Shown: positions 33,285-47,676, counted from the stretch's first letter. The stretch is 64,000 nt of DNA from Flavobacteriales bacterium (GCA_016788285.1 JAEUSW010000076.1:1134-65133); one strand, 5' to 3'. The notes: generated from the sequence alone by a model not told the origin. Numbers and translations: made by a program.

Positions 33285-33288
33285 GGCT

Positions 33289-33378
33289 TGGCGGAGAGGG
33301 AGGGATTCGAACCCCCGTTACCCTTGCGGGTAAAGCGGTTTTCAAGACCGCCGCATTCGACCGCTCTGCCACCTCTCC
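33289..33378 (-). tRNA. tRNA-Ser (anticodon UGA), class II tRNA with long variable arm
   Basis: Reverse complement reads GGAGAGGTGGCAGAGCGGTCGAATGCGGCGGTCTTGAAAACCGC...GGGGGTTCGAATCCCTCCCTCTCCGCCA. The anticodon loop is CUUGAAA, with a GTTCGAATC T-loop, a long extra arm and an encoded CCA. Confidence 0.85.
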
Positions 33379-33428
33379 GAGCGGCGGCGAAGGTAGCGCC
33401 CGGCGATCGGGTAATTTGCGCACCGCTC

Positions 33429-34202
33429 ATGCGCTTCACCTTCCTCGGAACGGGCACCAGTCAGGGGGTGCCGGTGATCGGCTGCCGCTGCACCGTGTGC
33501 ACCAGCGCGGATGCCCGTGACCGCCGACTGCGGACCGCAGGCTGGATCCAGGTGGGTGGACGGTCCGTTCTGATCGATGCCGGGCCCGACCTGCGGCAGC
33601 AGAGCCTTCGTGCCGGGATCGACCAGGTGGATGCCGTACTGCTGACCCACGAGCACATGGACCACATCAGTGGCATGGACGAACTGCGCAGCTTCAATCA
33701 CCGACAACGCGCCGTGATGCCGGTGCATGCCTCCGAGGCCACCCTGGCTGCGGTGCGTCGGATCTACGCGTATGCCTTCGAGGCCGTCCGCTATCCGGGG
33801 GTGCCCGAGCTGGAACTGCACCCCGTCTCGGCCGGTCCCTTCCGCGCTGCCGGGGTGGGTTTCGAGGCCGTGGATGTGCTGCACCTGGGCATGCCCGTGC
33901 TCGGCTTCCGGATCGGTGGCCTCACGTACATCACCGACGCGAAAGAGCTGCCGCCATCGACCAAGGAGCGCGCGCGGGGTTCCGAGGTGCTGGTGTTGAA
34001 CGCGTTGCGCCACGAGCCGCACGCGGCGCACCTCAACCTGAAGGAGGCGCTGGACCTGGCCCGCGAACTGGGGGCGCGGCGTACCTTCCTCACCCACATC
34101 AGCCATTTGCTCGGCCTCCATGCCGACGTGCAGCGCACCCTGCCGGAAGGGGTGGAACTGGCCTACGACGGCCTTTCCGTGGAGCTGCCCGATCCCTGCT
34201 GA
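33429..34202 (+). CDS. MBL-fold metallo-hydrolase (PhnP / tRNase-Z-like subgroup)
   Basis: Zinc-binding motifs LLTHEHMDHISG and a C-terminal H (LTHISH). Cys cluster CRCTVCTS near the N-terminus, as in PhnP-like enzymes. Confidence 0.75.
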   Translation: MRFTFLGTGTSQGVPVIGCRCTVCTSADARDRRLRTAGWIQVGGRSVLIDAGPDLRQQSLRAGIDQVDAVLLTHEHMDHISGMDELRSFNHRQRAVMPVHASEATLAAVRRIYAYAFEAVRYPGVPELELHPVSAGPFRAAGVGFEAVDVLHLGMPVLGFRIGGLTYITDAKELPPSTKERARGSEVLVLNALRHEPHAAHLNLKEALDLARELGARRTFLTHISHLLGLHADVQRTLPEGVELAYDGLSVELPDPC

Positions 34203-34284
34203 TGGGCTTCCACGCACAAGGCGGGGGTCGGAGTTGTTCGGTGACCGACGGAGCACGAACTTCGATCCTCCAACCTGTTGCGCA

Positions 34285-37230
34285 ATGCGTAAGATCCTCC
34301 TTGTCGCCGGACTGATCGCCGGCACCCACCCTGCCATGGCCGTTGAAGGCGGCCGCGATGAGCGGAGCATCACCTTCATCCGCGATCCACGGCGCACACC
34401 GGACATCGCCTGGCAGGCGGAGCTCCGCGCACGTCCGCAATGGCGGAATTTCGTCGCCGAGCACGGGACCTGGTGGACGGAGTTCAACGAGGGAAGCGGG
34501 TTGCCGCACCGGGCCTTCGGCAAGCCCATCGCCGCGGTGGGTGGGGACCCCGCGTCGAAGGCGTGGGATTTCCTCCAGCACCAGCTCGCGGGCTTCAACC
34601 TACCGCTCGGAGAGGTCAGTGTGCGGTCCGTGTACCCCACCGCCAAGCATACCTATGTGCATTTTGCGCAGACCCATGCCGGCTTGCCCGTGGTGTTCGG
34701 TCAGGCGATGGTGAAGCTGGATGCCCAAGGCCGGGTGATCGCCTTCGGCACGGACCTGTATCCGGGGATCCAGGTGGAGGCGCAGCCCAGTGTCAGCGAA
34801 GCCGCCGCGGTGGTGAACGCCTCGAGCGGATTGACGGGCATCGTGGGTTCCGTGGTCACCGGCCTGCGCATCCTTCCGGTCCAGGGGGATCGCTCCGTGG
34901 AGCACCGTCTGGTGCATGAGGTGATCGTGCACACCATGGAACAGAACGTTCCCGGTCGCTGGTCGTGCTGGGTGGACGCCCATTCGGGCGAGCTGTTGTA
35001 CCGCCAGGACCTGGTGGTGCATCATGCTCCGCCGGCCTCCGCGGGGGCCGAGATCGCCGCCACCGCCACGGCCCACACGGTGAACCCGTATGTGCCGGCC
35101 ACCACCGAGGTGCTGCCCGACCTGCGCGTGGTCGTGAACGGACTGAGCCAGTACCTGGACACCCAGGGATACCTGAACACGGGCGTGGGCGGCCCGGTGA
35201 ACGCGACCTTCTTCCTGGACGGCCGCTGGTGCAATGTGAAGACGGGCGGCAGCACGCCGAGCTTCCAGACAACCTTGCAGGAAGGCCCGAACGCCATCAG
35301 TTTCAATGCCGACGCCAACCTGCGCGAGCGGAGCGCTTACTACCATGTGAACGTGGTGCATGACCACATGAAGGACTGGCTGCCCAACTTCACCTCATTG
35401 GACGTCCCGTTCACCACCAACGTGGATGTGGCGGGCAACTGCAATGCGTTCTACGACGGGGGCTCGATCAACTTCTACCAGGAGGGCGGGGACTGCCAGA
35501 GCTACGCGCAGATCGCCGAGGTGGTGTACCACGAGTATGGGCACGGCATCAACGACAAGTTCTACGGCACGCTCCTGAGCCAGTTCACCAATGGGGCCAT
35601 GAACGAAGGCTACGCGGATGTGTGGGCCTTGTCGATCACGGAGGACCCGGTCCTGGCCGAAGGCAGCTCGTTGAGCGACCCGGACGATTTCATCCGGCGC
35701 TACGATGAGAACCGCAAGGTGTACCCGGTGGATCTGGTGGGTCAGGTGCATGCGGACGGGGAGATCATCGCGGGGGCCTGGTGGGACACCTACCTGCTGC
35801 TGGGCAGCGACATGAACGCGATGCTCACCTTGTTCGTCGAGGCCTTCCCCGGTCTGCAGGCGAATACGGTGAACGGAAATGAAGGACAGGCCTTCCGCGA
35901 TGTGCTGCTGGATGTGCTTCAGGCGGACGACAACGACGGGGACATCACGAACGGCACACCGAACGCGGGAGCCATCGTGGAAGCCTTCGCCCTGCACGGG
36001 ATCACCCTGCTGAGCAACGCCACCCTGGTGCACAGCAACCTGGAGACGGCGCCCGAAGCGCAGGGGATCGAGCTGGATGCACAGCTGGTCCTGGACTTCG
36101 ACTTCCTGCCCTTCCTCTCGGACGTGAAGCTGTTCTACCGGGTGAACAACGGGGGGGTGTGGAACACCCTGCCGATGGTGGACTTCGGGAGCAACGATTA
36201 CCACGTGACCATTCCTGCGCAGCCGGCGGGGACGGTGGTCGCTTACTACATGGGTGTGGAGGACAGCTTCCAGCAGCTGAGCGCGGTGGTGCCGATCGGT
36301 GCGGCGGAACCCGACCCGAACGTGCCGTACTACATCATGGTGGGCTTCGGTCTGGTGGCCACGGACGATGCGGACAACAACACCCAGCTCGGGAACTGGG
36401 ACATCGGGCTTCCCACGGACAACGCCACCACCGGCGAGTGGGAGTTCAACATGCCCGTGGGCAGCTATGCCACGCCGGGCGACCTGAGCACGGTGGTCCA
36501 GCCCGGATCCCAGCACACACCGGGCGGAGAGATCTGTTACGTGACGGGCAACGCCTCGACCGAGCTCGCCCCGCTGGGGGAGAACGACGTCGATGGCGGC
36601 ACCACCACGCTGCGGAGCGCCGCGCTGGACATGTCCACCATGCAGGAGCCGGCCATGTCCTACTGGCGGTGGTACGTGAACGACCCACCGGGCGGCGCCA
36701 ACCCCGGCGCGGACTGGTGGCAGGTGTGGTTGAGCAACGATGGCAGCACCTGGGTCCCGGTCGAGAACACGAAGACGAGCGATCGCAGCTGGCGCCGGGT
36801 GGCCTTTCGGGTGGGCGACTTCGTGAACCCCACCTCCACGGTGTTCATCAAGTACAATGCCTCGGACAGCATCCGACCCGGGCAGAACCTGGACGGCGGC
36901 AGCCTGGTGGAGGCGGCCGTGGACGACATCCAGTTGTGGGACCTGGCCGATGGCATCGGCATCGAGGAGATGGCCACCGTGGATCTGCTGGTGTTCCCGA
37001 AACCGGCACAGGACCAGTTGCAGGTGCGCGGGGCCGTGGGCGATGCACGCTCGGCGGACCTGGTCGTGCTGGACGCTGCGGGCCGTGTGGTCATGCGACA
37101 GCAGGTGGGTGGCACCGCGCTGCGTGAACGCATCGTGCTCAACGTCGCCGATCTGGCGCCGGGCAGCTACGTGCTGCAGGTGATCACCGACCGGGCGCGG
37201 GGCGAAGAGCGCTTCCAGGTGGTCCGTTGA
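34285..37230 (+). CDS. Secreted zinc metallopeptidase, M36 (fungalysin-like)/M4 clan, with N-terminal FTP-type propeptide and C-terminal T9SS sorting domain
   Basis: Signal peptide MRKILLVAGLIAGTHPAMA. Zincin motif VVYHEYGHGIND, with a downstream EGYADVW third-ligand region. C-terminal LLVFPKPAQDQLQVRG...GSYVLQVITDRARGEERFQVVR is a T9SS CTD. Confidence 0.8.
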   Translation: MRKILLVAGLIAGTHPAMAVEGGRDERSITFIRDPRRTPDIAWQAELRARPQWRNFVAEHGTWWTEFNEGSGLPHRAFGKPIAAVGGDPASKAWDFLQHQLAGFNLPLGEVSVRSVYPTAKHTYVHFAQTHAGLPVVFGQAMVKLDAQGRVIAFGTDLYPGIQVEAQPSVSEAAAVVNASSGLTGIVGSVVTGLRILPVQGDRSVEHRLVHEVIVHTMEQNVPGRWSCWVDAHSGELLYRQDLVVHHAPPASAGAEIAATATAHTVNPYVPATTEVLPDLRVVVNGLSQYLDTQGYLNTGVGGPVNATFFLDGRWCNVKTGGSTPSFQTTLQEGPNAISFNADANLRERSAYYHVNVVHDHMKDWLPNFTSLDVPFTTNVDVAGNCNAFYDGGSINFYQEGGDCQSYAQIAEVVYHEYGHGINDKFYGTLLSQFTNGAMNEGYADVWALSITEDPVLAEGSSLSDPDDFIRRYDENRKVYPVDLVGQVHADGEIIAGAWWDTYLLLGSDMNAMLTLFVEAFPGLQANTVNGNEGQAFRDVLLDVLQADDNDGDITNGTPNAGAIVEAFALHGITLLSNATLVHSNLETAPEAQGIELDAQLVLDFDFLPFLSDVKLFYRVNNGGVWNTLPMVDFGSNDYHVTIPAQPAGTVVAYYMGVEDSFQQLSAVVPIGAAEPDPNVPYYIMVGFGLVATDDADNNTQLGNWDIGLPTDNATTGEWEFNMPVGSYATPGDLSTVVQPGSQHTPGGEICYVTGNASTELAPLGENDVDGGTTTLRSAALDMSTMQEPAMSYWRWYVNDPPGGANPGADWWQVWLSNDGSTWVPVENTKTSDRSWRRVAFRVGDFVNPTSTVFIKYNASDSIRPGQNLDGGSLVEAAVDDIQLWDLADGIGIEEMATVDLLVFPKPAQDQLQVRGAVGDARSADLVVLDAAGRVVMRQQVGGTALRERIVLNVADLAPGSYVLQVITDRARGEERFQVVR

Positions 37231-37280
37231 CCGTCGGACCTGAACACGAGCGCCCCGGGGGATCCCCGGGGCGCTCGTGT

Positions 37281-37994
37281 TCAGGGGGTGGTGGCCACGG
37301 GGTGGGTGAGCAAGGCCTGGAAGCTGCGCACGATCGCCGCGGTGACGCGCTCATCCATGCGCAGGCCATCGGCCGAGGCGAAACGCTGGTTCACCTCCAG
37401 CTCGATCCCGGCATACCCCTCGGGATGGGCGGCCCGAAGGGCCGTGGTATGGCCATCATCGGTTCCGAGGTAGGGCTCGTTGTGGCGGATCACGAGGTCC
37501 GGCGCAGCGGTGCGCATCAGCTGCTCCCACGCGTCGACCAACGCCCGTTCCCGAACGCGGGTGGGGTCGTACAACAGGCCGATGTCCATCGGACGCCGCA
37601 CGCCGTCCAGCTCCGGGGTGAAGCTGTGCACGCTGAGGTGCAGGACGTTCCACCGGCCGGCACGCCAGGTGGCCACGGCGTCGGCGGCGGCCATGCGGAA
37701 GGGGGTGTAGTGCTCGTCGATCAAGTGGCTGCGCTGTGCGTGCGGCAGATCGCGGGTGAACGCGGAGAACAGGTCCGGACCGTCGAGGGAGCGGTTCAGT
37801 TCCACCACCAGGCGGGAGGTGGTGCCTTCCAGGGCGAGGTGCGCCAGCGGACGCAAGGCCGTGAACAGGTCCAGGGCCCCGGGGTCCCAGCCGCGGTGGG
37901 AGCGAAGCACCTCGTCGGCCCCTGCGAAGAGGGCCCGCAGCTCGGTGGGCACCGCATGGCCACCGTGCTCGCAGGTGAGCAGCACGCGGGTCAT
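37281..37994 (-). CDS. N-formylglutamate amidohydrolase (FGase/HutG-like, COG3741) family hydrolase
   Basis: Starts MTRVLLTCEHGGHAVP, the typical FGase N-terminus. Contains HSF and DxGLL motifs. Its start ATG overlaps the stop of the upstream GCS2 gene. Confidence 0.75.
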   Translation of the reverse strand: MTRVLLTCEHGGHAVPTELRALFAGADEVLRSHRGWDPGALDLFTALRPLAHLALEGTTSRLVVELNRSLDGPDLFSAFTRDLPHAQRSHLIDEHYTPFRMAAADAVATWRAGRWNVLHLSVHSFTPELDGVRRPMDIGLLYDPTRVRERALVDAWEQLMRTAAPDLVIRHNEPYLGTDDGHTTALRAAHPEGYAGIELEVNQRFASADGLRMDERVTAAIVRSFQALLTHPVATTP

Positions 37995-39232
37995 GCGAAG
38001 AGCCGGTCGTCCTGCAGGCAGGCGGCGAGCTCGGCATAGACCTGCCGGATCCTGTCCGTCGAGGGCTTGCGGCCGGTGCGGGCCAGGATGCGCTGGGCCA
38101 GGCAGCCCTTGGCGAGCAGATGATCGATGACGGCGCGCGCCTCCTCGCTCAGTTCGCCCCGCAGCTCCTGCACGATGTGCTCCCACAGGCGCTGCGCGGT
38201 CATCCGCTGCTCCTTCATCACGCCGAACATCAGCAGATAGTCCTTGTTCGCGATGACGGCCTTGCCGGCGTCCTTGATGGTCTGCAGGAAGATCGGCAGG
38301 AGGTCGGTCTCGCTCCAGGCCCGCTGCAGGTAGGTGCTGGTCCAGCGGCCTTTGGTCATGGCGCGGCAGAGGGCCACGATCAGTTCGGCGATGGCCAGAT
38401 CGGCCCCCGGGCATTCCTGGATGTCGATGACGCGCAGTTCGATGGCACCACGGTCGAACCGGGCGATGGCCCCCCGCGAGTTGGCGAAGTGGTGGTCCAT
38501 CACCTGTTCGGTATCGAACGGGGCGAGGGCGCGGCCGATGGGGTCGAACACTTCGCGGTAGTAGTCCTCCTGGGTGAAGACCGCTTCGGGGATCAGCGAG
38601 CCCATGAGGGCGGGGAGGCGTTCCTGATGGTGCAGGTAGGCCTCCATGCGCGAGTCGAGGAACCCGGTGGGCTTGCCATCGAGGAGGGGTGAGCTGGCGG
38701 AGAGCGCGGGGATGATCGGCAGCACCATGCGCACGGCGGCGTGCAGCTTGCCGAACTCCTCATCGGTGGCGAAGGGGAGGTTGAGGTGGGTGCTCTGGAG
38801 GTTGCTCCAACCGTGGCCCCGGCAATCGAAGATGCGGTTGTACAGGGCGTACACCTCATTGTATTCGTGCGGCCAGATCACCGTTTCGGTGAAGGGGTCC
38901 ATGAGCGGGTGGGCGGCCGTGGGCAGCAGCATGGCGTCGTGCGCGGCGAGGGCGGCGTTGATGGCGCGCACCTCTCCGGCGAACTTCCGCCGGAAGACCG
39001 GGATGCGGCGGGTGGGCCGGGCGGTCTTCAGTTCCACCACGTGGCTGACGAGCTCATTGCTCCATTCCACGTCCCCGCGTTCCACGTCGCTGGTGATGCG
39101 GCCTACGACATCCTGGAACAGCTGGTCCACGATGGGCATCACGCGCAGCGTGCCGCGGTGCACCACCATGTACTCCAGTTCGATGCCGGTGACCTCGAAG
39201 AGCTTGAAGGCGTTCCGCTTGGGAGGGGTCAT
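37991..39232 (-). CDS. Glutamate-cysteine ligase family 2 (GCS2) / YbdK-type carboxylate-amine ligase
   Basis: GCS2 hallmark N-terminus (FEVTGIELEYMVVHRGTL...) and core (HLNLPFATDEEF...; RFDRGAIELRVIDIQ). Start/stop overlap with both neighbouring genes. Confidence 0.85.
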   Translation of the reverse strand: MTPPKRNAFKLFEVTGIELEYMVVHRGTLRVMPIVDQLFQDVVGRITSDVERGDVEWSNELVSHVVELKTARPTRRIPVFRRKFAGEVRAINAALAAHDAMLLPTAAHPLMDPFTETVIWPHEYNEVYALYNRIFDCRGHGWSNLQSTHLNLPFATDEEFGKLHAAVRMVLPIIPALSASSPLLDGKPTGFLDSRMEAYLHHQERLPALMGSLIPEAVFTQEDYYREVFDPIGRALAPFDTEQVMDHHFANSRGAIARFDRGAIELRVIDIQECPGADLAIAELIVALCRAMTKGRWTSTYLQRAWSETDLLPIFLQTIKDAGKAVIANKDYLLMFGVMKEQRMTAQRLWEHIVQELRGELSEEARAVIDHLLAKGCLAQRILARTGRKPSTDRIRQVYAELAACLQDDRLFA

Positions 39233-40737
39233 GTGCGTTGTGCCGGCGCGGCCGGTGCGGCGGTCGGTCGGATGCCGATCCTGCGTTCGATGCGGTGTTT
39301 CAGGGAGCAGATGATGGCCTCGTACAGGGCGTCGCCCAGAACGACATCCTCCACGCCATGATCGATGTTGGGGCACTCGTTCACCTCGATCACATAGGGG
39401 CGTCCGTCGCGCTCCTTCACGTCGACGCCGAAGAGGCCCTGGTCGCCCACCACGGCCAGCACGGCCTTCACGGCCGCATCCACGATGGCCTTGGGCGCCT
39501 GGTCGACCGGCAGGGTGGCGAAGTCGCCCGTCTGGTCCTTCTTGGTGCCGCTGCTCCAGTTGTAGATCTGCCAGTGTCCGCGGGCCATGAAGTACTTGCA
39601 GGCGTACAGCGGCCGGCCGTCGAGCACGCCCACGCGCCAGTCGAAGTCGCTGGGCATGAACTCCTGGGCGATCACCAGGTCGCTCTCGCCCAGGAGCTCG
39701 TCGAGCTTGCGTTCCAGTTCCTCGGGGCTGTGCGCCTTGGTGACCCCCCTGCTGAACGTGCTGTCGGGGAGCTTCAGCACCACCGGCAGGCCGAAGCGTG
39801 CGATCACCTCCTGGCGGTTCTCGGCATGCACGATCAGGGTTCTCGGCGTGGGCACATCGTGCGCCTCCATCACCTCGGCGAGGAAGACCTTGTTGTTGCA
39901 CTTGAGGATGGCGTCCGGGGCGTCCATCACGGCGAGCCCTTCCTTCTGTGCCTTGCGGGCGAAGCGGTAGGTGTGGTGGTCCACATGGGTGTTCTCGCGG
40001 ATGAACAGGGCGTCGTACTCGGCCACGCGATCGATGTCGTCGGGGCCGAGGATATCCACCTTGAAGCCGAGGCGCTCCGCGGCCTGGCGGAACTTCACCA
40101 CCGCGCGCTTGTTGCTGGGTGAGGCCTGGTCCTCGGGGTTCACCAGGATGGCCAGGTCGTAGCTGCTATGGTCCTCACGGGCACGGTCGTAGCGCTTCTT
40201 GGCGAAATACTCGCTGGCGAAGCGCCGCAGGAAGGGCAGGTGGTCCTCGGGGATGTCGTTGTACGGGATGGGCCGGATGGCGCGCAGCTCCCATTCCCCG
40301 CCGGTGCGCTGGAACCGGGCGCGCAGCAACGGCGACCGGAACACCTTGTAGAGCTCGTGCGCGAGGCGGTCGTACTTGCGGTTGACGTTGCGGCCGAAGT
40401 AGATGCTCAGGTCGAACTGGTCCTTCTTCTTGTCCGCCAGCTGCTGCTGGATGAGGCCGTGCAGGTCGCGTCCCAGGACCTTCACCAGGCGCGGCGAACG
40501 AAGGTCGAGGATGCTCTTCGCGTCCGGGATCACCTTGTGGCCGCGGGCCTCGGCCAGCAGACTGACGTAGTAGCCGCGGCTCTGGTAGCTGTAGCTGCGG
40601 GCCAGGTTGAAGATGCGCACGTTGCGCAGCGCGGCAAAGGTGGGGTCGGTGAGGTAGTCCTTGCTGGACACCACCTCCACGCCGGAAAGGCCGAGGTGGA
40701 ACTCACGCGGTTCGCGCACCACAATGATCTTCCTCAT
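39229..40737 (-). CDS. RimK-type ATP-grasp ligase (alpha-L-glutamate ligase / glutathione-synthetase-like) with an uncharacterised roughly 230-aa N-terminal extension
   Basis: C-terminal ATP-grasp core (PVVLKLPDSTFSRGVTKAHSPEE...LVIAQEFMPSDFDWRVGVLDGRPLYACKY...PYVIEVNECPNID). The N-terminal 230 aa have no recognisable motif. Confidence 0.85.
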   Translation of the reverse strand: MRKIIVVREPREFHLGLSGVEVVSSKDYLTDPTFAALRNVRIFNLARSYSYQSRGYYVSLLAEARGHKVIPDAKSILDLRSPRLVKVLGRDLHGLIQQQLADKKKDQFDLSIYFGRNVNRKYDRLAHELYKVFRSPLLRARFQRTGGEWELRAIRPIPYNDIPEDHLPFLRRFASEYFAKKRYDRAREDHSSYDLAILVNPEDQASPSNKRAVVKFRQAAERLGFKVDILGPDDIDRVAEYDALFIRENTHVDHHTYRFARKAQKEGLAVMDAPDAILKCNNKVFLAEVMEAHDVPTPRTLIVHAENRQEVIARFGLPVVLKLPDSTFSRGVTKAHSPEELERKLDELLGESDLVIAQEFMPSDFDWRVGVLDGRPLYACKYFMARGHWQIYNWSSGTKKDQTGDFATLPVDQAPKAIVDAAVKAVLAVVGDQGLFGVDVKERDGRPYVIEVNECPNIDHGVEDVVLGDALYEAIICSLKHRIERRIGIRPTAAPAAPAQRT

Positions 40738-41492
40738 GGGCTCACGGACGGGTTCGGACGCTTCGGGGCGCGCTCCTTCACCAGCGGTGGTGGAAGGGGC
40801 GAGCGCGACAGGATGAGCATGTTGGCGTCGTAGGTGACGATGCCGAGCATGATGGAGTTGATCAGACGGCCCACGTGCACCGGGTAATGATGCTCGCGGC
40901 TGTAGGGGTTGTCCATGTATGGGTCCGCCACGTGCACGGTCTTGCCCTCCATGGAGGTGAGCACCACGAAATGCCCCATGGGCTTCCCGCGGAGGTCATC
41001 GAAGACGCTCTGTCCGTTGGCCCCGGTGTGCTCACGTTTGCTGCGGTAGAGGTAGGTCGCGCTGAGCCCTGTGAGGATCGGCAGGTCCCGGTCCAGGTAG
41101 TCGCGCAGCAGGTCGGGCGTGGGGTCGTCGAACCGGACCTCGCCGCCCATCTTCAGGAAACGGGCGTAGGCCAGGCAGGCGGCGGTCAGCTTCTTGCCGT
41201 CCTTGAAGCGGGTCTGCGCCACGAGCTTTTTCCGCAGGACCTCGCCCGGCAGGCCCTCCCAGGTGGGGTCGAACACGCGGAGGTTGTAGCTGTGGATGCG
41301 GGCATGGAAGCCCTGTTTCAGCGCGTGCAGACCCAGGAAGACCGCCAGGGTGCCGCCATCCTCCAGGGCATGCACCTCCCGGATCACCTGGTCCAGCGGC
41401 AGGTCGAGGCCCAGGTGCGCGTAGACGGCCTGCAAGGCCGTGGGCCCGCAGGTGTTGTCATCGGGCTGGGGGAGGATGCGGAGCCTGCGCAT
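40734..41492 (-). CDS. Papain-fold cysteine peptidase, C39-like (Peptidase_C39_2-type) hypothetical protein
   Basis: QPDDNTCGPTALQAVYAHLG (a Cys in the Q...C context typical of C39/papain-like peptidases) and a later GHFVVLTS (candidate catalytic His). Stop overlaps the ATP-grasp start. Confidence 0.55.
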   Translation of the reverse strand: MRRLRILPQPDDNTCGPTALQAVYAHLGLDLPLDQVIREVHALEDGGTLAVFLGLHALKQGFHARIHSYNLRVFDPTWEGLPGEVLRKKLVAQTRFKDGKKLTAACLAYARFLKMGGEVRFDDPTPDLLRDYLDRDLPILTGLSATYLYRSKREHTGANGQSVFDDLRGKPMGHFVVLTSMEGKTVHVADPYMDNPYSREHHYPVHVGRLINSIMLGIVTYDANMLILSRSPLPPPLVKERAPKRPNPSVSP

Positions 41493-41552
41493 GGAAGCCG
41501 GTGGGCGGACCGGGCAAAGGTGAACGGGCGGGGGCCGCGCGCGCCGACGGAT

Positions 41553-41576
41553 GAGGGCCGGCCATGAACAGCCCGC
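41553..41576 (-). terminator. Perfect hairpin ccatgaac-agcccgcc-gttcatgg downstream of the DUF4340 gene, separating the gld-like operon from the ligase operon
   Basis: Seen in sequence: 8-bp perfect stem with an 8-nt loop, 14 nt after the stop at 41590. Confidence 0.4.
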
Positions 41577-41589
41577 CGTTCATGGCGCC

Positions 41590-42525
41590 TTAGGGCAGGA
41601 AGAAGCCGCGTGTCTTGAACATGCGCGTCAGCTCGCGCGAGGGGTCGAAACGCATCTTCGATCCGGGGTCGAGCGAGGTGGTGGCCACCAACCCCGACCA
41701 TCCGGTGTAGATGCTGACCGTGATGGGCGCGCGGCCATCGTCGAAGCTCACTTCGAGGCTGTAGTCGGGGGTCAGACCGGCGATGTTCACCGTGTCCGCG
41801 AAGGCCTGGGTGCGCGCCCGGACGAGGGGGGCGAGGTAGCCGTCCACCTTGCTCTGATCGGCGGTGTCGGCGTCCACCATCCACGTGCTGCCCATCCGCT
41901 CCACCACGAAGGCGGTATCCATGGAATAGCTGAACCGCAGGCGCTGGATGCGCGCGGGATCGCCACGTACCAGCCACTTGGGCCGCCATTCGGCCAGGGG
42001 TTGTTCCGCCAGCATGCTCATGGTCCCCTCCACCGAGAAGACCTCGTCCTCGCCCGGGAGGTTCACGGTGGACCACATGCCCACCTGACCGGGTGCGAAG
42101 GTGTTCCGACCGTAGTGCACGGTGCGCTCCGGTCCGTCCACCGACCGGAAGACCGCGGTCTCGCGAAGGCTGTCGGTGAGGTCGTAGCGCTCCTTCACCA
42201 GGTCCATGAAGCCCGTGAGCCGCTTGCTGCGCATGTGGGCGTGTCCTCCGAGGAACTCGCGGACACGTTCATCGTCGGCGCGATGGGCGCGGCCGTCCAG
42301 GCTCACCGTCCATCCATCGGGGCTCCGGTCGAAGCGCAGTTCAGCGGGGCGCATCGCGCTGGGAAAGAGAGAGAAGCCGGTGACCGCGGCGGTGTCCAGG
42401 GTCATCACCACATCGCGGAAGCTGCGGTCCTTGGCGCGCGGGCTCCAGAGGTCGGAGATCACGAAGAGCAGCAGCAGCACGCCGGCGGCGATGAGCAGGG
42501 CCCGGGTGCTGAGGTTACTCCACAT
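41590..42525 (-). CDS. DUF4340 domain protein (GldG-associated)
   Basis: N-terminal TM anchor. Positioned immediately downstream of the GldG-like gene and overlapping it, the usual arrangement for DUF4340. Confidence 0.55.
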   Translation of the reverse strand: MWSNLSTRALLIAAGVLLLLFVISDLWSPRAKDRSFRDVVMTLDTAAVTGFSLFPSAMRPAELRFDRSPDGWTVSLDGRAHRADDERVREFLGGHAHMRSKRLTGFMDLVKERYDLTDSLRETAVFRSVDGPERTVHYGRNTFAPGQVGMWSTVNLPGEDEVFSVEGTMSMLAEQPLAEWRPKWLVRGDPARIQRLRFSYSMDTAFVVERMGSTWMVDADTADQSKVDGYLAPLVRARTQAFADTVNIAGLTPDYSLEVSFDDGRAPITVSIYTGWSGLVATTSLDPGSKMRFDPSRELTRMFKTRGFFLP

Positions 42526-44029
42526 GGCCTGGGGCCGATCGGGCCTTTCGTTGGCGACGGCGCCACTGCATGCGCAGCACGCCGCAGGCGATCACGAGCA
42601 GGATGGGGAGCAGCAGGTTGGACCACTTGAGCGTGCTGCGCTCGGCATCGCCCAGTTCCTCGAGCGGCCTGTAGTTGACGCCCTTGCCGCGCAGGTCGAT
42701 GAGCCCGGTCTGGTCGCTCACCCAGTCCACCGCGTTCACCAGCAGGTTCACATTGTCCGGGTTCAACTGACCACCTTCCGCGCCCACGGCGAAGTTGCCG
42801 TTGCCGATGACCACGAGCCGGGCACCGGGTCCATTGCCGAAGGGCCCTTCGACGGCGAAGGCGAGGTCCCGCGGGGCCTGGGTGAAGTCGGCATCGGTCC
42901 ATTGGCGCTGCAGGTCGACCTCGTGCGGAAGGGCGACCGAGCCGGTGCGGTCGCTGGTGGAGAGCAGCGGGGTGTAGCGGTAGGTGCTGTCGCCGGTGAC
43001 CGTGAACGAGCGCGCGAACTGCAGCACGACGGCTTCCAGGCCCGAGGCCACCGGATGCTCACCGAAGCGGGTGACCAAGGGGAAGTAGGGGAAGGCCATG
43101 GCCGTTTGCAGGTTGAAGAACCCCCGCTGCTGCATCACCTGCACCTGGCCGCACTGCGCGTCGGTCACCAGGTCCAGGTCGGCGCGCAGGCCGTGGCGTG
43201 CGAGCCACGCATCCACCCCCGTGCTGCGCTGCTCCACGAGAGGGGTGCGTTGCAGGTCGGCCGCGGCATGGCTGAAGGCGATGACCACCCCTCCGCCGCG
43301 TGCCATGAACTCCTCCAGCCGTTGGAGCGCCATGGGGCTGATGGTGTCCGCAGGGTCGATGATGGCGATGGTGCGGAAGCGGCCGTGCACCGGCATGGTG
43401 TCATAGATGGTCATGGGCTCCACGCTGTAGAGGACGCTGAGGCCCTGCATGGCCTGGGCCATGGCGTTCACCGAGGGTTCGCCATGCCCCTGCATGATGC
43501 CCACCACGGGCTTCTCCTGCACGCTCACTTCCTTGATGCGTGAGCTGAGCTCCCACTCCATGGGCGATCCAGGCTGCACCACGGGGATCACGGCCTGCTG
43601 TTCGCCCATGCGCACCACGGCACCCATGAAGGCCTTGATCTGCTCGGCCTTGTCCTTTTCCCGCGTGTTCACCAGGAGAGGGCGGATGCCGGCCTCCAAG
43701 GCCTGCTGTTCCAACGAATCGGCCGAGGCCGGATCGATCATCTCGTACACCACGTTGCCGCCGGAACGTTCGGCGTACTCCACGAGCAGGTCGCGGAACT
43801 CATCACGGGCCACCGCCAGGTCCGGCGGCAGATCCTCCGTGAAGTAGCCGGTGATGGTGGCGGCCTCGGGCAGGTCCTTCAGGATGTCGCGCGTGGCCTT
43901 GCTGAGGGTGTAGCGCTGGTCACTGGTGAGGTCGATGCGCAGGTGGTAACGCGAGCCGACGAGGTTGAGCAGCACCAGCACGGCGCTGAACAACAGCCCG
44001 AAGCGGATCATGGCGGCCTTGGTCCTCAT
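42515..44029 (-). CDS. GldG-like ABC-type uncharacterised transport system auxiliary component (gliding-motility-associated)
   Basis: N-terminal and C-terminal TM anchors flanking a large periplasmic domain, about 500 aa. Downstream of ABC-2 permease and ATPase genes, as in gldA-gldF-gldG. Confidence 0.7.
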   Translation of the reverse strand: MRTKAAMIRFGLLFSAVLVLLNLVGSRYHLRIDLTSDQRYTLSKATRDILKDLPEAATITGYFTEDLPPDLAVARDEFRDLLVEYAERSGGNVVYEMIDPASADSLEQQALEAGIRPLLVNTREKDKAEQIKAFMGAVVRMGEQQAVIPVVQPGSPMEWELSSRIKEVSVQEKPVVGIMQGHGEPSVNAMAQAMQGLSVLYSVEPMTIYDTMPVHGRFRTIAIIDPADTISPMALQRLEEFMARGGGVVIAFSHAAADLQRTPLVEQRSTGVDAWLARHGLRADLDLVTDAQCGQVQVMQQRGFFNLQTAMAFPYFPLVTRFGEHPVASGLEAVVLQFARSFTVTGDSTYRYTPLLSTSDRTGSVALPHEVDLQRQWTDADFTQAPRDLAFAVEGPFGNGPGARLVVIGNGNFAVGAEGGQLNPDNVNLLVNAVDWVSDQTGLIDLRGKGVNYRPLEELGDAERSTLKWSNLLLPILLVIACGVLRMQWRRRQRKARSAPGHVE

Positions 44030-44033
44030 GGCA

Positions 44034-44759
44034 TCAGCGCTGCAGCCCGCGTTTGGCCAGTTGAAGTTCGGCGCCCACCAGCCCTGCTGCGGCGATGCTC
44101 AGGAAGTAGAGGACATCGCGGCTGTCCACCACGCCGCGCGACATGGAGTCGAAGTGGACGCCCATGCCCAGGAAGTCGAACACGCGGCCCACGGTGCCGG
44201 TGAGCGATGCGGCCACGATCCCGAACAGCAGGTGGAAACACGCGCCGATGACCAGGGCGATGAGGAAGGCCACCAGCTGGTTGTTGGTGACGGAACTGGC
44301 GAAGACCCCGACGCCGATGTAGCTGGCGCTCATCAGCAGCAAGGCCAGGTAACCGCACACGGCGGCGCCGTGGTCGATGGGCCCGATGCGGGCCACGGTG
44401 ATGTAGTAGGGCAGGGTGAAGAAAAGGGCCGCCGCGATCAGCAGCAGGCAGGAGGTGAACTTGCCGAGCACCACCTGCCAGTCGGTGACGGCCTTGGTGA
44501 GCAGCAGGTCGAGGGTGCCGGTGCGACGCTCCTCGGCCAGGGTGCGCATGGTGAGGGCGGGGATGAAGAAGAAGAGCGTCCAGTAGGCGATGTTGAAGAA
44601 GCTGCCGAGGTCGGCCTGGCCCTGCATGAACACATCCGCGCCGAACCACCAGGTGAAGAAACCGCTGATGCCCAGGAAGACCACCAGCAGGATATAGGCC
44701 ATGAGGGAGTCGAAGAAGGAGGCGAGCTCCCGGCGGGCGATGGTCCAGGTCGTACGCAC
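44034..44759 (-). CDS. ABC-2 family transporter permease (GldF-like)
   Basis: Six predicted TM helices, about 241 aa. Immediately downstream of the ABC ATPase. Confidence 0.75.
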   Translation of the reverse strand: MRTTWTIARRELASFFDSLMAYILLVVFLGISGFFTWWFGADVFMQGQADLGSFFNIAYWTLFFFIPALTMRTLAEERRTGTLDLLLTKAVTDWQVVLGKFTSCLLLIAAALFFTLPYYITVARIGPIDHGAAVCGYLALLLMSASYIGVGVFASSVTNNQLVAFLIALVIGACFHLLFGIVAASLTGTVGRVFDFLGMGVHFDSMSRGVVDSRDVLYFLSIAAAGLVGAELQLAKRGLQR

Positions 44760-44765
44760 GGTCGG

Positions 44766-45689
44766 TCAGTTCAGCGTAAGGTCTCGGAAGACATCCTCGA
44801 GGCGAGAGCCTGGGGAGTGCAGTTCGGTGAGGGTCCAGCCCCGGTCCACGCACAGGCGATAGACCGGGCGGGCGATGTGCGCGTCAGCAGCGGCTTGCAG
44901 GAGGAAGGCCCCGTCGGTAGCGACCTCCATGGCCTCCACGCCGGGCAGGTCCCGCAGCGCTTCGGCCGGGGCGCCAGGGGGGGCATCCTCGATCCGCACC
45001 CGCACCAGCGGGCGGCCTTGGGCCTGCCGTCGAAGATCGCCCGGGGTGCCGTCGGCCACGATCCTGCCTTTGTTGATGATGAGGATCCGATCGCAGGTGG
45101 CCTCCACCTCGGGCAGGATGTGGGTGCTGAAGATGACCGTCTTGGCCCGGCCCACTTCCTTGATCAGCTCCCGGATCTCCACGATCTGGTTGGGGTCCAA
45201 TCCGGTCGTGGGCTCATCGAGGATGAGCACCTCGGGATCGTGGACCATCGCCTGGGCCAGCCCGACACGCTGACGGTAGCCCTTGCTGAGCTCGCCGACC
45301 CGTTTGTGCTTCTCGGCATCGAGGCCGCACACGCGCACCATCTCGGCCAGGCGCTCGCGGATGCGGCCATCGGACAGGCCCTGCACGCGCGCGGCGAAAC
45401 GCAGGTGGTCAAGCACGGGCATGTCCTCGTACAACGGATTGTTCTCCGGCAGATAGCCGATGTGGCGGCGCACGGCCTGGAGGTCGCTCAACACCGATCG
45501 GCCTCCGACGTGGATGCTGCCCGCATCGGGAGCGAGCAGGCCGCAGATCATCTTCATGGTGGTGGATTTCCCGGCGCCGTTCGGACCCAGGAAACCAAGC
45601 ACCTCGCCGGGCCGCACCATGAAGCTGATGCCATCCACCGCGGCCTGCGGGCCGTAGCGCTTGGTGAGGCCTTCGATGCGGATGTCCAT
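44766..45689 (-). CDS. ABC transporter ATP-binding protein (GldA-like)
   Basis: Walker A GPNGAGKST, signature LSKGYRQRVGLA, Walker B LILDEPTTGLD. The start was taken at MDIRIEGL. Confidence 0.85.
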   Translation of the reverse strand: MDIRIEGLTKRYGPQAAVDGISFMVRPGEVLGFLGPNGAGKSTTMKMICGLLAPDAGSIHVGGRSVLSDLQAVRRHIGYLPENNPLYEDMPVLDHLRFAARVQGLSDGRIRERLAEMVRVCGLDAEKHKRVGELSKGYRQRVGLAQAMVHDPEVLILDEPTTGLDPNQIVEIRELIKEVGRAKTVIFSTHILPEVEATCDRILIINKGRIVADGTPGDLRRQAQGRPLVRVRIEDAPPGAPAEALRDLPGVEAMEVATDGAFLLQAAADAHIARPVYRLCVDRGWTLTELHSPGSRLEDVFRDLTLN

Positions 45690-45699
45690 GGGAGCGGCG

Positions 45700-45707
45700 C
45701 AAAAATA
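45700..45707 (-). promoter_or_regulatory. Putative -7 element TATTTTTG (minus strand) upstream of the ABC ATPase gene
   Basis: Matches the Bacteroidota sigma-A TAnnTTTG consensus. Plus-strand CAAAAATA at 45700-45707. Confidence 0.3.
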
Positions 45708-45766
45708 TCCGGCCACGCCCGGCGGCTTCGGGAGGTGTGCGAAAAAACGTTAACGGCCTGGGCGGG

Positions 45767-46297
45767 TCATCGGGATGGGTCGGGAAAGAGCTCCTTGGGC
45801 AGGGCGCCTTCATGCTCCAGCAGCCATTTCTTGCGCCAGAGCCCGCCGACATAACCGGTGAGGAGGCCGTCGCTGGCGATCACCCGGTGACAAGGGACCA
45901 GGATGGGCAATGGGTTGCTGCCGCAGGCGTGCCCCACGGTGCGTCCCAGGGCGCGACCGCCGATGCGTTCCCCGATGGCCTGGTAGGTCAGCGTGCGGCC
46001 ATAGGGGATGTCGTCGATCGCGGACCAGACCAGCCGCTGGAACCTGGTGCCCAGCCGTTGGAGGGGCAGGTCGAAGGTCCTCCGCTTTCCCGTGAAGTAG
46101 TGGTCGAGCTGGCGGGCCGCCTCGGCGAGCAGAGGAGGCTGCTTGCCCCGGTTGCCGACCAGCGCTTCGAAGGAGACCCGGGTGATCAACGCTCCATCGC
46201 TCTCCAGGAAGACCTTGCCGATCGGGCCGTCCACCGCCACCACATGCAGTGGGGCGAACAGTTCGAGTGAGCGGGTCCTACGGACGGAGGGGGGCAT
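45767..46297 (-). CDS. ogt: Methylated-DNA-[protein]-cysteine S-methyltransferase
   Basis: Active-site PCHRV motif and HTH (TLTYQAIGERIG). The 427-aa track ORF was trimmed to the 176-aa product from the in-frame ATG, because its 5' extension runs antisense through the DUF2461 gene. Confidence 0.85.
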   Translation of the reverse strand: MPPSVRRTRSLELFAPLHVVAVDGPIGKVFLESDGALITRVSFEALVGNRGKQPPLLAEAARQLDHYFTGKRRTFDLPLQRLGTRFQRLVWSAIDDIPYGRTLTYQAIGERIGGRALGRTVGHACGSNPLPILVPCHRVIASDGLLTGYVGGLWRKKWLLEHEGALPKELFPDPSR

Positions 46298-46319
46298 GGC
46301 CTGCGGGTTAACTTCCGCG

Positions 46320-46327
46320 CAAAATAG
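46320..46327 (-). promoter_or_regulatory. Putative -7 element TATTTTGC (minus strand) about 23 nt upstream of ogt
   Basis: Plus-strand CAAAATAG between the divergent ogt and DUF2461 genes. Confidence 0.3.
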
Positions 46328-46333
46328 GCAGCC

Positions 46334-46996
46334 ATGGCGTGGTTTGGTCCGGACTTCGATCGCTTCTTCAAGGACCTTGCGGCCCACAACAACAAGGAGT
46401 GGTTCGACGGGCAGCGCAAGCGTTACGAAGAGAACGTGAAGGAGCCGTTCGCGGCGTTCGTCGGCGAGTTGATCGCGCGGGTGGGCGCGCTGGACAAGCG
46501 GGTCCGGATCACCCCGCAGGAAGCGATCTTCCGCATCCATCGGGACGTCCGCTTCAGCAAGGACAAGGCGCCCTACAAACTGGCGTGTTCGGCGATCATC
46601 TCGGCGGCCGGGCGCAAGGACCATGGCGTCCCCGGCATGTACATCGAGCTGGGCCCGGAGAAGGTGGCGATCTATGGGGGCAGCTACCAGCCGGAGAAGG
46701 AGGCATTGCTCGCCATCCGGCAACGGATCGCCGCCAAGCCGGCCGTTTTCCGTTCGCTCTATACCGCGAAGCCGTTCGCCGAGCGGTTCGGGTCGATCCT
46801 GGGAGAGCGGAACAAAGTGCTTCCTCCGGAGCTGCGCAAGGCGGCCGAACGTGAGCCACTGCTCTACAACAAGCAGTTCTATTGGTGCGCCGAGCTGCCC
46901 GCCTCCAGGATCACCTCGCCCAAGCTGGCCGATGTGATGATGGAGCACTACAGCGCCATGCGCCCCTTGAACGAGTTCCTGCTGGGCAAGGTCTGA
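46334..46996 (+). CDS. DUF2461 (TIGR02453) family protein
   Basis: Conserved FFKDLAAHNNKEWF...RIHRDVRFSKDK motifs typical of the DUF2461 family. Confidence 0.7.
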   Translation: MAWFGPDFDRFFKDLAAHNNKEWFDGQRKRYEENVKEPFAAFVGELIARVGALDKRVRITPQEAIFRIHRDVRFSKDKAPYKLACSAIISAAGRKDHGVPGMYIELGPEKVAIYGGSYQPEKEALLAIRQRIAAKPAVFRSLYTAKPFAERFGSILGERNKVLPPELRKAAEREPLLYNKQFYWCAELPASRITSPKLADVMMEHYSAMRPLNEFLLGKV

Positions 46997-47046
46997 AACG
47001 AAGGAAGGCGACCCGAGGGTCGCCTTCCTTGCAACTCGGCGCGAGG

Positions 47047-47676
47047 TCACTGCCCCTTGCCCACCAGCGACACCACGATCTCGATGTCGTCGCTGAGGAC
47101 CATGTCCTTCATCGGGTTGGCCCAGGACACGCCATACTTCTGGCGGTTGAACACCAGCTTGCCGCTGGCGTTGGCCATGCCGTTCTCCTCGCTGATCACG
47201 ATGTCAGTGACGGTCTCGGTGCCCATCCGGCCGCGCACGTTCAGTTCGCCGGTGGCGGTGTTGCCGCTGACGGAGGTCACCTTGAAGCTGGCCGTGGGGA
47301 AGCTGTCGACCGCGAAGAAGTCAGGGCTGGCCAGGTGACCGGTCAGCTTCTCCTTGGTGTAGTCCTTGTTGTAGTTGGTGTCGAGGGGCACCATGCTCTT
47401 CATGTCCACCACGAAACCGCCGGAGACAAGCTGGCCACCCTTGGCCATGAAGCTGCCCTCGGTGAAGGCCATGGTGCCCTCGTGGTACTTCACACCGATC
47501 ATCACCCCTTTCCAGGTGAGCTTGCTGGCCGCGATGTCCAAGGCATAGGAGACTTCCTTCGCCTCCATGGTGGCGGTGCTGTCGATCGCACCTTCACCTT
47601 CGGCGGTGCCGCCGCCGCCGCAGGAGGCGAGGGTAAGGGCCACCAAGGCGGTGGCGCTGAACAAATGGAGCTTCAT
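47047..47676 (-). CDS. YceI family periplasmic lipoprotein
   Basis: Lipoprotein signal MKLHLFSATALVALTLASC and a YceI-like beta-barrel pattern (SKLTWKGVMIGVKYHEGTM...TGELNVRG). Confidence 0.7.
   Translation of the reverse strand: MKLHLFSATALVALTLASCGGGGTAEGEGAIDSTATMEAKEVSYALDIAASKLTWKGVMIGVKYHEGTMAFTEGSFMAKGGQLVSGGFVVDMKSMVPLDTNYNKDYTKEKLTGHLASPDFFAVDSFPTASFKVTSVSGNTATGELNVRGRMGTETVTDIVISEENGMANASGKLVFNRQKYGVSWANPMKDMVLSDDIEIVVSLVGKGQ

Follow-up and report, generated by a model that had tools for sequence, protein, structure and literature searches.

In glutathione biosynthesis, a GS-fold ligase (GshA) and then an ATP-grasp ligase (GshB) build a tripeptide from free amino acids, and glutathionylspermidine synthetase/amidase joins an ATP-grasp-type synthetase to a cysteine amidase of the papain-like (CHAP) type, by which the bond just made is broken again. 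A 2009 survey of amidoligases (Iyer, Abhiman, Burroughs and Aravind, Mol Biosyst) reportedly described gene neighborhoods in which RLAN—the 'RimK-like ATPgrasp N-terminal domain'—occurs with GCS2 ligases, FGase-family hydrolases, GNAT acetyltransferases, and papain-like peptidases, and the Pfam family PF14401 is said to originate there. Here, we analyze one such neighborhood: a four-gene operon on the minus strand, at positions 37281–41492 of a 64,000-nucleotide stretch of Flavobacteriales bacterium DNA (GCA_016788285.1, JAEUSW010000076.1:1134-65133; the whole stretch is referred to as the window). The operon encodes a C39-like peptidase, an RLAN-containing RimK-clade ATP-grasp ligase, a GCS2-superfamily ligase, and an FGase-family amidohydrolase. 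In having RLAN with a RimK-like ATP-grasp enzyme and the same partners it is like the neighborhoods attributed to the survey, with no substantive difference. The operon is an ordinary member of a widespread, already catalogued module, in which the two ligases form the core and for which we consider a cytoplasmic pathway that makes and trims a small glutamate-containing peptide.

An initial annotation of the window, made from the sequence alone, had remarked that such neighborhoods had been noted before without a product being assigned. That remark holds: literature searches for RLAN, PF14401, DUF3335, and the combination of RimK, GCS2, and FGase returned no functional study and no report of a product, substrate, or phenotype, and no paper mentioning RLAN or PF14401 was present in the literature searched. 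A review of papain-like enzymes mentions GNAT-DUF3335 fusions (PMC10318531), for which we take the 2009 survey to be the source. The 490-aa 'rimK' product FTT0178 of Francisella, deletion of which was not attenuating in mice (PMC2675058), may, judging by its length, be an RLAN-type protein; it was not used as evidence.

Several characterized systems share parts of this architecture. RimK/RimB of Pseudomonas includes the nearest characterized ATP-grasp clade and likewise pairs a ligase with a hydrolase that acts on its product (PMC11957791); RimK, however, is a protein of ~300 aa that lacks RLAN, no GCS2 partner is described for it, and RimB is retropepsin-like rather than papain-like. Compared with the glutathione system, the ATP-grasp enzyme of the module belongs to the RimK clade and not to the GshB clade, and a zinc amidohydrolase and RLAN are additional. 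In the synthesis of N-acetylaspartylglutamate (NAAG) and β-citrylglutamate by RIMKLA/B, acting after NAT8L, a RimK-like enzyme adds glutamate to an N-blocked or small acid and a zinc hydrolase of the glutamate carboxypeptidase type removes it (PMC7907349). Variants of the module with a GNAT domain, described below, mimic this acetyltransferase-plus-ligase pair (NAT8L–RIMKLA), whereas mammalian RIMKLA/B lack RLAN and the window operon uses GCS2 instead of GNAT. LysX/ArgX are also RimK-clade enzymes, and each half of the RLAN-ATP-grasp protein found its best structural matches among them, but their system needs the carrier LysW and enzymes of lysine or arginine biosynthesis, none of which is conserved beside the module. 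Finally, CtaD/CtaG (closthioamide) and BtrJ/BtrH (butirosin) combine, as here, an ATP-grasp enzyme with a C39/DUF3335/BtrH-like Cys-His-Asp enzyme (PMC7183216), yet these are thiotemplated pathways on peptidyl carrier proteins (PCPs) with a pyridoxal phosphate-dependent decarboxylase, and no such genes lie near the module. The operon adds no new type of system. That RLAN is a degenerate, lid-less ATP-grasp copy is a prediction computed in this analysis.

The operon and the two parts of its second gene are laid out as follows.

40734–41492, minus strand: gene 1, stand-alone, predicted cytoplasmic C39-like papain-fold cysteine peptidase, 252 aa
39229–40737, minus strand: gene 2, RLAN plus RimK-clade ATP-grasp ligase, 502 aa
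40180–40737, minus strand: RLAN domain of gene 2, residues 1–186, predicted lid-less and catalytically dead ATP-grasp-like module
39268–40170, minus strand: catalytic ATP-grasp module of gene 2, residues ~190–490
37991–39232, minus strand: gene 3, GCS2/YbdK-superfamily carboxylate-amine ligase, 413 aa
37281–37994, minus strand: gene 4, FGase-family (N-acyl-glutamate-type) zinc amidohydrolase, 237 aa

At each junction (40734–40737, 39229–39232, and 37991–37994), the stop codon of one gene and the start codon of the next overlap within the sequence ATGA. The four minus-strand genes and these overlaps lie exactly where the initial annotation had placed them, and its family assignments were likewise confirmed for all four proteins by a search with Pfam hidden Markov models. 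The start codons of genes 3 and 4 sit within longer mechanical open reading frames (ORFs) and were fixed by homologues together with the overlap pattern. The G+C content is ~66% across the whole window, and the operon is not distinct in composition; a content of this kind would also be the simplest explanation for the numerous long ORFs of the opposite strand and of the remaining frames. Sequence inspection revealed no hydrophobic segment in any of the four proteins; all are therefore predicted to be cytoplasmic. The four-gene operon is real and tightly coupled.

One genome per species was scanned, and the module was found at no fewer than 592 loci, that is, in at least 592 species genomes. 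Gene order was counted in the best 80 of these loci, 76 of which had enough flanking DNA to be informative. A GCS2 gene followed the ATP-grasp gene in 78 of the 80, a C39-like gene preceded it in 60, and an FGase gene was present in 51, always in the same order. The composition of the informative loci was as follows.

All four genes: 38 of 76 loci (a further 3 with the FGase gene a few kb away), the commonest form
FGase missing: 17 of 76
C39 missing: 10 of 76
Both hydrolases missing: 7 of 76
No partner genes: 1 of 76

The ligase pair was thus adjacent in 75 of the 76 informative loci, while the C39 gene was present in 58. From these counts we regard the two ligases as the core and the hydrolases as frequent, dispensable accessories. 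The view that the four genes form one unit stands insofar as they are co-conserved; an obligate quartet it is not, as only the ligase pair is constant. The window itself has, next to its RLAN-RimK gene, an adjacent co-directional GCS2 gene and both the FGase and the papain-like peptidase genes. Complete quartets occurred in Flavobacteriales, Chitinophagales, Cytophagales, Marinilabiliales, Fibrobacter, and Gammaproteobacteria. A 4-bp overlap was the commonest spacing at each junction across genomes (44/60, 37/77, and 34/51). The arrangement is not due to chance: one gene order recurs in dozens of genomes from several phyla, with 4-bp overlaps as the commonest spacing. Even a distant copy (L088) retained the overlapping layout unchanged, and another locus (L095) kept all four genes in permuted order.

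The members of the module differ in how closely they follow one another. Pairwise identities of the ATP-grasp protein were correlated with the GCS2 identities at r 0.94 and with the C39 identities at r 0.93, and less closely (r 0.66) with those of FGase, the most variable, fastest-diverging, and most often absent member. Among the matches listed, the nearest genome (L001), an uncultured Flavobacteriales metagenome-assembled genome (MAG), shows 97% protein identity; the 85%-identical L003 and L004, which are among the closest relatives in that set, already lack FGase. The C39 gene is absent from Flavobacteriaceae and from many Fibrobacter. Three Fibrobacter loci (L066, L067, and L075) carry an FGase homologue 4–5 kb downstream of C39-grasp-GCS2, not adjacent to it, and other Fibrobacter genomes have the two ligases alone.

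Both ligases appear catalytically competent by their conserved residues. In the gene 2 protein, ATP-grasp_3, Dala_Dala_lig_C, and RimK all scored above their Pfam cut-offs at residues 280–459, and the motifs VVLKLPDSTFSRGV (319), IAQEF (356), GVDVKE (437), and IEVNECPN (450) could be read. The ATP-binding Lys and the Mg-binding D/E-x-N motifs are intact, with K322, D439, E451, and N453 kept in at least 97% of 80 sequences. The protein collection yielded over 7,900 homologues (E <= 1e-10), publicly named 'RimK family protein' or 'glutathione synthase/RimK-type ligase'. When the family profile was compared with the PDB, RimK structures came first (E ~2e-10), followed by Ddl and LysX, and across NCBIfam and PDB the best matches were the Glu-adding RimK, LysX, and MptN, ranking above glutathione synthetase. 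An assignment as RimK proper was rejected, given that both NCBIfam RimK models stayed far below cut-off (rimK_fam, TIGR00768, 67.1 bits against 143.4; PRK10446, 18.2 against 331), and LysX reached 66 bits against 275.6. The gene 3 protein matched GCS2 at residues 32–292 (85 bits, cut-off 21, E 7.7e-24) and kept G16-I-E18-L-E20 in at least 97% of 79 sequences; this corresponds to the GhExE metal/ATP signature of the GCS2 superfamily (PMC2588565). A sequence search of the PDB gave no match for gene 3, and its assignment as a YbdK or glutamate-cysteine ligase equivalog was discarded (TIGR02050, PRK13515–13518, and TIGR02048; best score 54 bits against 176.4). None of the four proteins reached the cut-off of any NCBIfam model, and none matched a PADLOC defense model at E <= 0.01.

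The initial annotation had described the first ~230 residues of the gene 2 protein as matching no recognizable motif. This proved mistaken: the region comprises the Pfam domain RLAN (PF14401; residues 26–170, 158.1 bits, cut-off 25, E 1.6e-46) and the N-terminal sub-domain of the ATP-grasp fold, residues from ~190 on being part of the ATP-grasp enzyme itself. Scoring above the gathering threshold and lying N-terminal to ATP-grasp, RLAN places the protein among the RLAN-containing RimK-like ATP-grasp enzymes; a profile of RLAN only retrieved 923 clusters among 1.84 billion representative proteins. We modeled the whole protein with AlphaFold (AF2) in template-free mode (predicted local distance difference test, pLDDT, 85) and residues 1–186 on their own (pLDDT 87, predicted TM-score, pTM, 0.81). 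In Foldseek comparisons, residues ~190–490 superposed on complete chains of Ddl, RimK, and ArgX/LysX, with target TM-scores of 0.7–0.8, and the RLAN model retrieved ATP-grasp proteins only at E <= 0.001, with alignments covering the whole target. On our reading of the model, the order of elements in RLAN would correspond to the N-terminal sub-domain plus the last helix-hairpin-helix of a catalytic module, the ATP-binding lid being absent. RLAN also has neither the Lys/Gly-rich loop nor the E-x-N metal motif, and carries an invariant motif of its own, Y51-QS-x-GYYVSLLAEARG66. The domain may be a degenerate, catalytically dead, lid-less copy of an ATP-grasp module that serves binding rather than catalysis. 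Since an hhalign comparison of the two halves, RLAN and ATP-grasp, gave no significant match (E 0.074), albeit with equivalent helices paired (56–98 vs 257–314), the idea of a duplication rests on predicted structure and not on sequence.

The two hydrolases retain their catalytic residues as well. The gene 1 protein scored 29.3 bits for Peptidase_C39 and 25.2 bits for C39_2, above the respective cut-offs of 22 and 24, and its Gln/Cys/His/Asp catalytic set—Q9, C15 (NTCGPT), H174 (GHFVV), and D190—was kept in at least 97% of 61 homologues; it includes the candidate catalytic Cys and His (C15 and H174) proposed initially. It resembles the ComA peptidase domain (3k8u) weakly and reached 15 bits, against a cut-off of 150, with the PA2778-type C39 model of NCBIfam. 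An exporter-type context, as fusion to an ATP-binding cassette (ABC) exporter or as a conserved association with one and with a double-glycine leader substrate, was not found: no exporter or precursor gene is conserved beside gene 1 across the loci. The gene 4 protein matched FGase (87.5 bits, cut-off 28.9, E 1.8e-24) and kept C8-E9-H10, D37, H119, H123, and E149 in at least 97% of homologues, its nearest solved structure being the uncharacterized Atu2144 (2odf, E 6e-21). It was rejected as HutG, for it fell below the equivalog cut-off (TIGR02017, 13.2 bits against 278.75) and has ligase, Gld-type ABC, and protease genes for neighbors instead of hut genes.

Besides the ~490-aa form, we found ~640-aa RLAN proteins with a GNAT acetyltransferase fused in front. 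These GNAT-RLAN-grasp fusions stand alone, without GCS2 and without the hydrolases. In a Legionellaceae genome, a small GNAT gene lies 4 nt upstream of the RLAN-grasp gene, and one further RLAN-grasp locus has a divergent GNAT. At locus L094 (1585–5345), a GNAT-C39_2/DUF3335 fusion and a DUF2817 protein, which we take to be an M14-like zinc hydrolase, are encoded divergently from an RLAN-ATP-grasp gene, in a layout that seems analogous to the set of four enzymes; an MbtH-like gene is located nearby. The functional set recurs with GNAT in the place of GCS2 and DUF2817 in that of FGase: the RimK-type ligase is accompanied by another amide-forming enzyme, by an enzyme of the papain fold, and by a zinc amidohydrolase. 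GNAT variants, fused or adjacent and lacking GCS2 and the hydrolases, were seen at L081–L087, L089–L090, and L093, one of these loci lying beside CitMHS/DcuC-type carboxylate transporters and another next to polyamine biosynthesis genes and a SET-domain gene. The variants were also compared with the osmolyte enzyme Ngg (N-acetylglutaminylglutamine synthetase, TIGR03103) and rejected as such (best 32.9 bits against 569, in the GNAT region only), and the gene 2 protein did not match this model.

The searches for a substrate encoded in cis were negative. When all ORFs with 60 aa or more located up to 7 kb from the module were clustered, no extra family common across taxa emerged, none of the 15–70 aa ORFs in flanks and gaps was common to different taxon groups, and no carrier, Pup-like, or precursor ORF was conserved in or near the module in the ~80 loci. 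The earlier suggestion of a peptide tag on a carrier protein hence found no support in cis.

Given the intact catalytic residues of all four enzymes and their co-conservation, the locus fits a pathway that builds and trims an amide or oligo-amino-acid product, and in this the proposal derived initially from the pairing of two ATP-dependent carboxylate-amine ligase folds with two hydrolases is supported. We favor, with a probability of roughly 45%, a pathway in the cytoplasm that makes and trims a small peptide containing glutamate. In its favor are the overlapping genes with their clear Pfam assignments, the conserved catalytic residues, the lack of membrane or secretion segments, the co-conservation of the genes, the Glu-adding RimK, LysX, and MptN as best matches of the ligase, the absence of any other gene family or 15–70 aa ORF conserved in cis across taxa, and the replacement of GCS2 by GNAT, both being able to N-acylate a free amino acid. 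In such a pathway, the GCS2 ligase would phosphorylate a carboxylate, most likely the γ-carboxylate of free glutamate, and join the activated glutamate to another amino acid through the amine of the latter, which would yield an N-blocked (γ-glutamyl) amino acid. The RimK-clade ATP-grasp enzyme would then activate the free α-carboxylate of this intermediate and add L-glutamate once or repeatedly, a two-ligase logic like that of GshA then GshB, or NAT8L then RIMKLA. RLAN would probably offer a surface on which the partner ligase or the substrate could dock or be scaffolded. The FGase-like zinc amidohydrolase could reverse the X-CO-NH-Glu bond; its family hydrolyzes N-acyl-glutamate, the type of bond that a RimK-like ligase makes. 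The C39-like cysteine peptidase might cleave (or transfer) the other amide bond. Both hydrolases would be dispensable accessories for turnover or length control, and in the sister systems GNAT would N-acylate the amino acid in the place of GCS2. Precedents exist for either ligase: the RimK homologue RIMKLB adds glutamate to small molecules, forming β-citrylglutamate and NAAG (PMC7907349), and YbdK, as cited in PMC2588565, is a γ-Glu-Cys ligase that acts on free amino acids. The substrate identities, step order, bond types, and role of RLAN are those that we infer. Spelled out further, and then only as a tentative proposal short of even odds, the product may be a hitherto undescribed peptide, for instance γ-Glu-X-(α-Glu)n, serving as an osmolyte, a metal or redox buffer, or a signal, made by a two-ligase complex assembled on the pseudo-enzyme RLAN, with optional turnover by the hydrolases, in hundreds of species of Bacteroidota, Fibrobacter, and Gammaproteobacteria.

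A number of points weigh against a small-peptide product. The nearest characterized relatives of the ATP-grasp enzyme, RimK and LysX/ArgX, act on protein C-termini, and the characterized C39 peptidases cut peptides, not molecules the size of a dipeptide. The RimK target S6 is not encoded beside rimK, so the lack of a target in cis leaves room for a protein substrate. GNAT partners of the variants score best, albeit sub-threshold, against RimI, which acetylates a ribosomal protein, and one GNAT variant locus has a SET-domain gene directly downstream. As no NCBIfam cut-off was reached, substrate specificity cannot be transferred from characterized enzymes, and the order of the ligase steps and the identity of the amino acid are purely inferred.

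Several of these points would equally suit a writer/eraser system that glutamylates a housekeeping protein encoded elsewhere, as RimK does with S6, or TTLL/CCP with tubulin. Here, the RimK-type enzyme would extend a C-terminal tail, GCS2 would make an isopeptide (γ-glutamyl) link, the hydrolases would trim, and RLAN would dock the target. Both the affinity of the ATP-grasp module for enzymes acting on protein C-termini and the RimI-like, if sub-threshold, GNAT partners speak for it, as do the best structural matches of RLAN, which include LysX/ArgX, solved with the carrier LysW. In Pseudomonas, RimK is paired with the trimming protease RimB (PMC11957791 and PMC4741518), and PafA, a relative of GCS2, ligates the terminal Glu of a protein to lysines (PMC2588565). 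On the other hand, in ~80 loci neither the module nor its surroundings hold a conserved candidate for a target, a carrier, or a small tag ORF, the RimK models score far below cut-off (67 vs 143 and 18 vs 331 bits), and the known characterized members of the GCS2 and FGase families—YbdK (its activity is cited in PMC2588565), EgtA, and HutG—act on small molecules. We consider protein glutamylation less likely than the small peptide and the main alternative to it.

Improbable, by comparison, is a glutathione-like thiol, a special case of the small peptide in which GCS2 would form γ-Glu-Cys, the ATP-grasp enzyme would add a third residue, and the enzyme with the papain fold would resemble phytochelatin synthase in its action or else be a degradative amidase. 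The architecture does parallel GshA (GS-fold) plus GshB (ATP-grasp), with weak matches of GCS2 to the cyanobacterial/plant-type glutamate-cysteine ligase models and of the ATP-grasp enzyme to glutathione synthetase models; these matches are, however, far below cut-off and weaker than those to RimK, LysX, and MptN. Moreover, Bacteroidetes are reported to have bacillithiol or N-methyl-bacillithiol (PMC6282198), the distribution of the module is patchy, each of the hydrolases, but not the pair of ligases, is frequently lacking, and the GNAT that takes the place of GCS2 in the sister systems cannot make γ-Glu-Cys. The thiol idea of the initial annotation is weakened accordingly, by the bacillithiol report and by an ATP-grasp enzyme that is nearer to RimK, LysX, and MptN than to glutathione synthetase.

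We consider it more improbable still that the enzymes make and degrade a cytoplasmic storage or protective polymer, such as poly-α-glutamate or a cyanophycin-like compound. RimK makes poly-α-glutamate in vitro (PMC10375531), two hydrolases would suit depolymerization, and cyanophycin synthetase models were matched weakly; yet those matches amount to 16–17 bits against cut-offs of >850, a homopolymer needs no second, GCS2-type ligase, and the hydrolases are frequently absent. Least credible of all is a secondary-metabolite pathway or one of the RiPP type (peptides made by the ribosome and modified after translation), with the C39-like enzyme as a leader peptidase or a BtrH/CtaG-type transacylase and the ATP-grasp enzyme building or cyclizing a peptide on a precursor or carrier: C39 peptidases do process RiPP leader peptides, and C39/DUF3335/BtrH-like transacylases act with ATP-grasp ligases in the closthioamide and butirosin pathways (PMC7183216), but the module has no precursor peptide, PCP carrier, decarboxylase, or exporter conserved alongside it, the adjoining Gld-type ABC genes are lineage-specific, the ATP-grasp enzyme is of the RimK clade and not of the graspetide or CtaD type, and many lineages do without the C39 gene.

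Three further elements flank the operon.

37239–37285: perfect hairpin with 22-bp arms and a 3-nt loop, overlapping the TGA stop of gene 4, between convergent genes
41561–41586: imperfect palindrome (arms 11/12) with the core ATGAAC-N8-GTTCAT, just past the stop of the DUF4340 gene
41515–41522, minus strand: CACCTTTG, candidate –7 promoter element, 22 nt upstream of the gene 1 ATG

The perfect hairpin is very stable on either strand (dG –53 kcal/mol on the minus strand and –56 on the plus strand; z –7.7 and –6.6; 0 of 200 shuffles as stable). Neither strand has a U-tract, and the terminator scan made no call here. The hairpin may act as a bidirectional terminator or a protein-binding palindrome. 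In the initial annotation, a perfect hairpin was held to insulate the operon from the upstream gld-like genes; it was misplaced, as the perfect one sits at the 3′ end of the operon. Upstream, the 97-nt intergenic region folds like shuffled sequence (z –0.07), and the terminator scan called nothing there. Its palindrome could be a weak terminator or an operator; the core, with a differing loop, is kept in L001–L004 only, ~92–105 nt upstream of the C39 gene.

The Bacteroidota –7 promoter consensus is TAnnTTTG. In 40 of 59 loci, the 250 nt that precede the first module gene contain the pattern nAnnTTTG, as compared with 21% of random 250-nt windows. In L001–L012, the motif CACCTTTG / GAyCTTTG recurs upstream. 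From sequence, it is plausible that the operon has its own promoter.

The neighboring genes do not belong to the module. Upstream on the minus strand (41590–45716) lie genes for an ABC ATPase, an ABC-2 permease, a GldG-like protein (ABC_transp_aux + DUF7088), and, last, a DUF4340 protein; this GldA/GldF/GldG-like operon is syntenic with the module only in closely related Flavobacteriales MAGs. Convergent with the operon (34120–37230, plus strand) is a gene for a large secreted protease that matches M36 weakly and has a propeptide motif of the fungalysin/thermolysin kind as well as a C-terminal sorting domain for type IX secretion; the true start of this gene is probably downstream of the mechanical ORF start. 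As a neighbor, this M36-like protease is likewise common only to closely related Flavobacteriales MAGs. The sole tRNA gene in the window is a tRNA-Ser (TGA; 33289–33378, minus strand; ARAGORN and Rfam). Because the mechanical ORF of a metallo-β-lactamase-fold gene (33288–34202, plus strand) overlaps this tRNA gene, the protein must start further downstream. The ORF at 45767–47050 (minus strand) encodes the C-terminal half of an O6-methylguanine-DNA methyltransferase (residues 276–416); the N-terminal extension of 270 residues matches nothing in Pfam and probably reflects an ORF called too long in high-G+C sequence.

The module is present in at least 592 species genomes from a minimum of three phyla and consists of four soluble enzymes with no external carrier, which makes it unusually easy to test by heterologous expression. 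Identification of its product would re-annotate thousands of genes currently misnamed 'RimK family protein', 'carboxylate-amine ligase', or 'N-formylglutamate amidohydrolase', and would show what role the pseudo-ATP-grasp domain RLAN plays. It may also lead to a new small peptide metabolite or to a new bacterial system of protein glutamylation.

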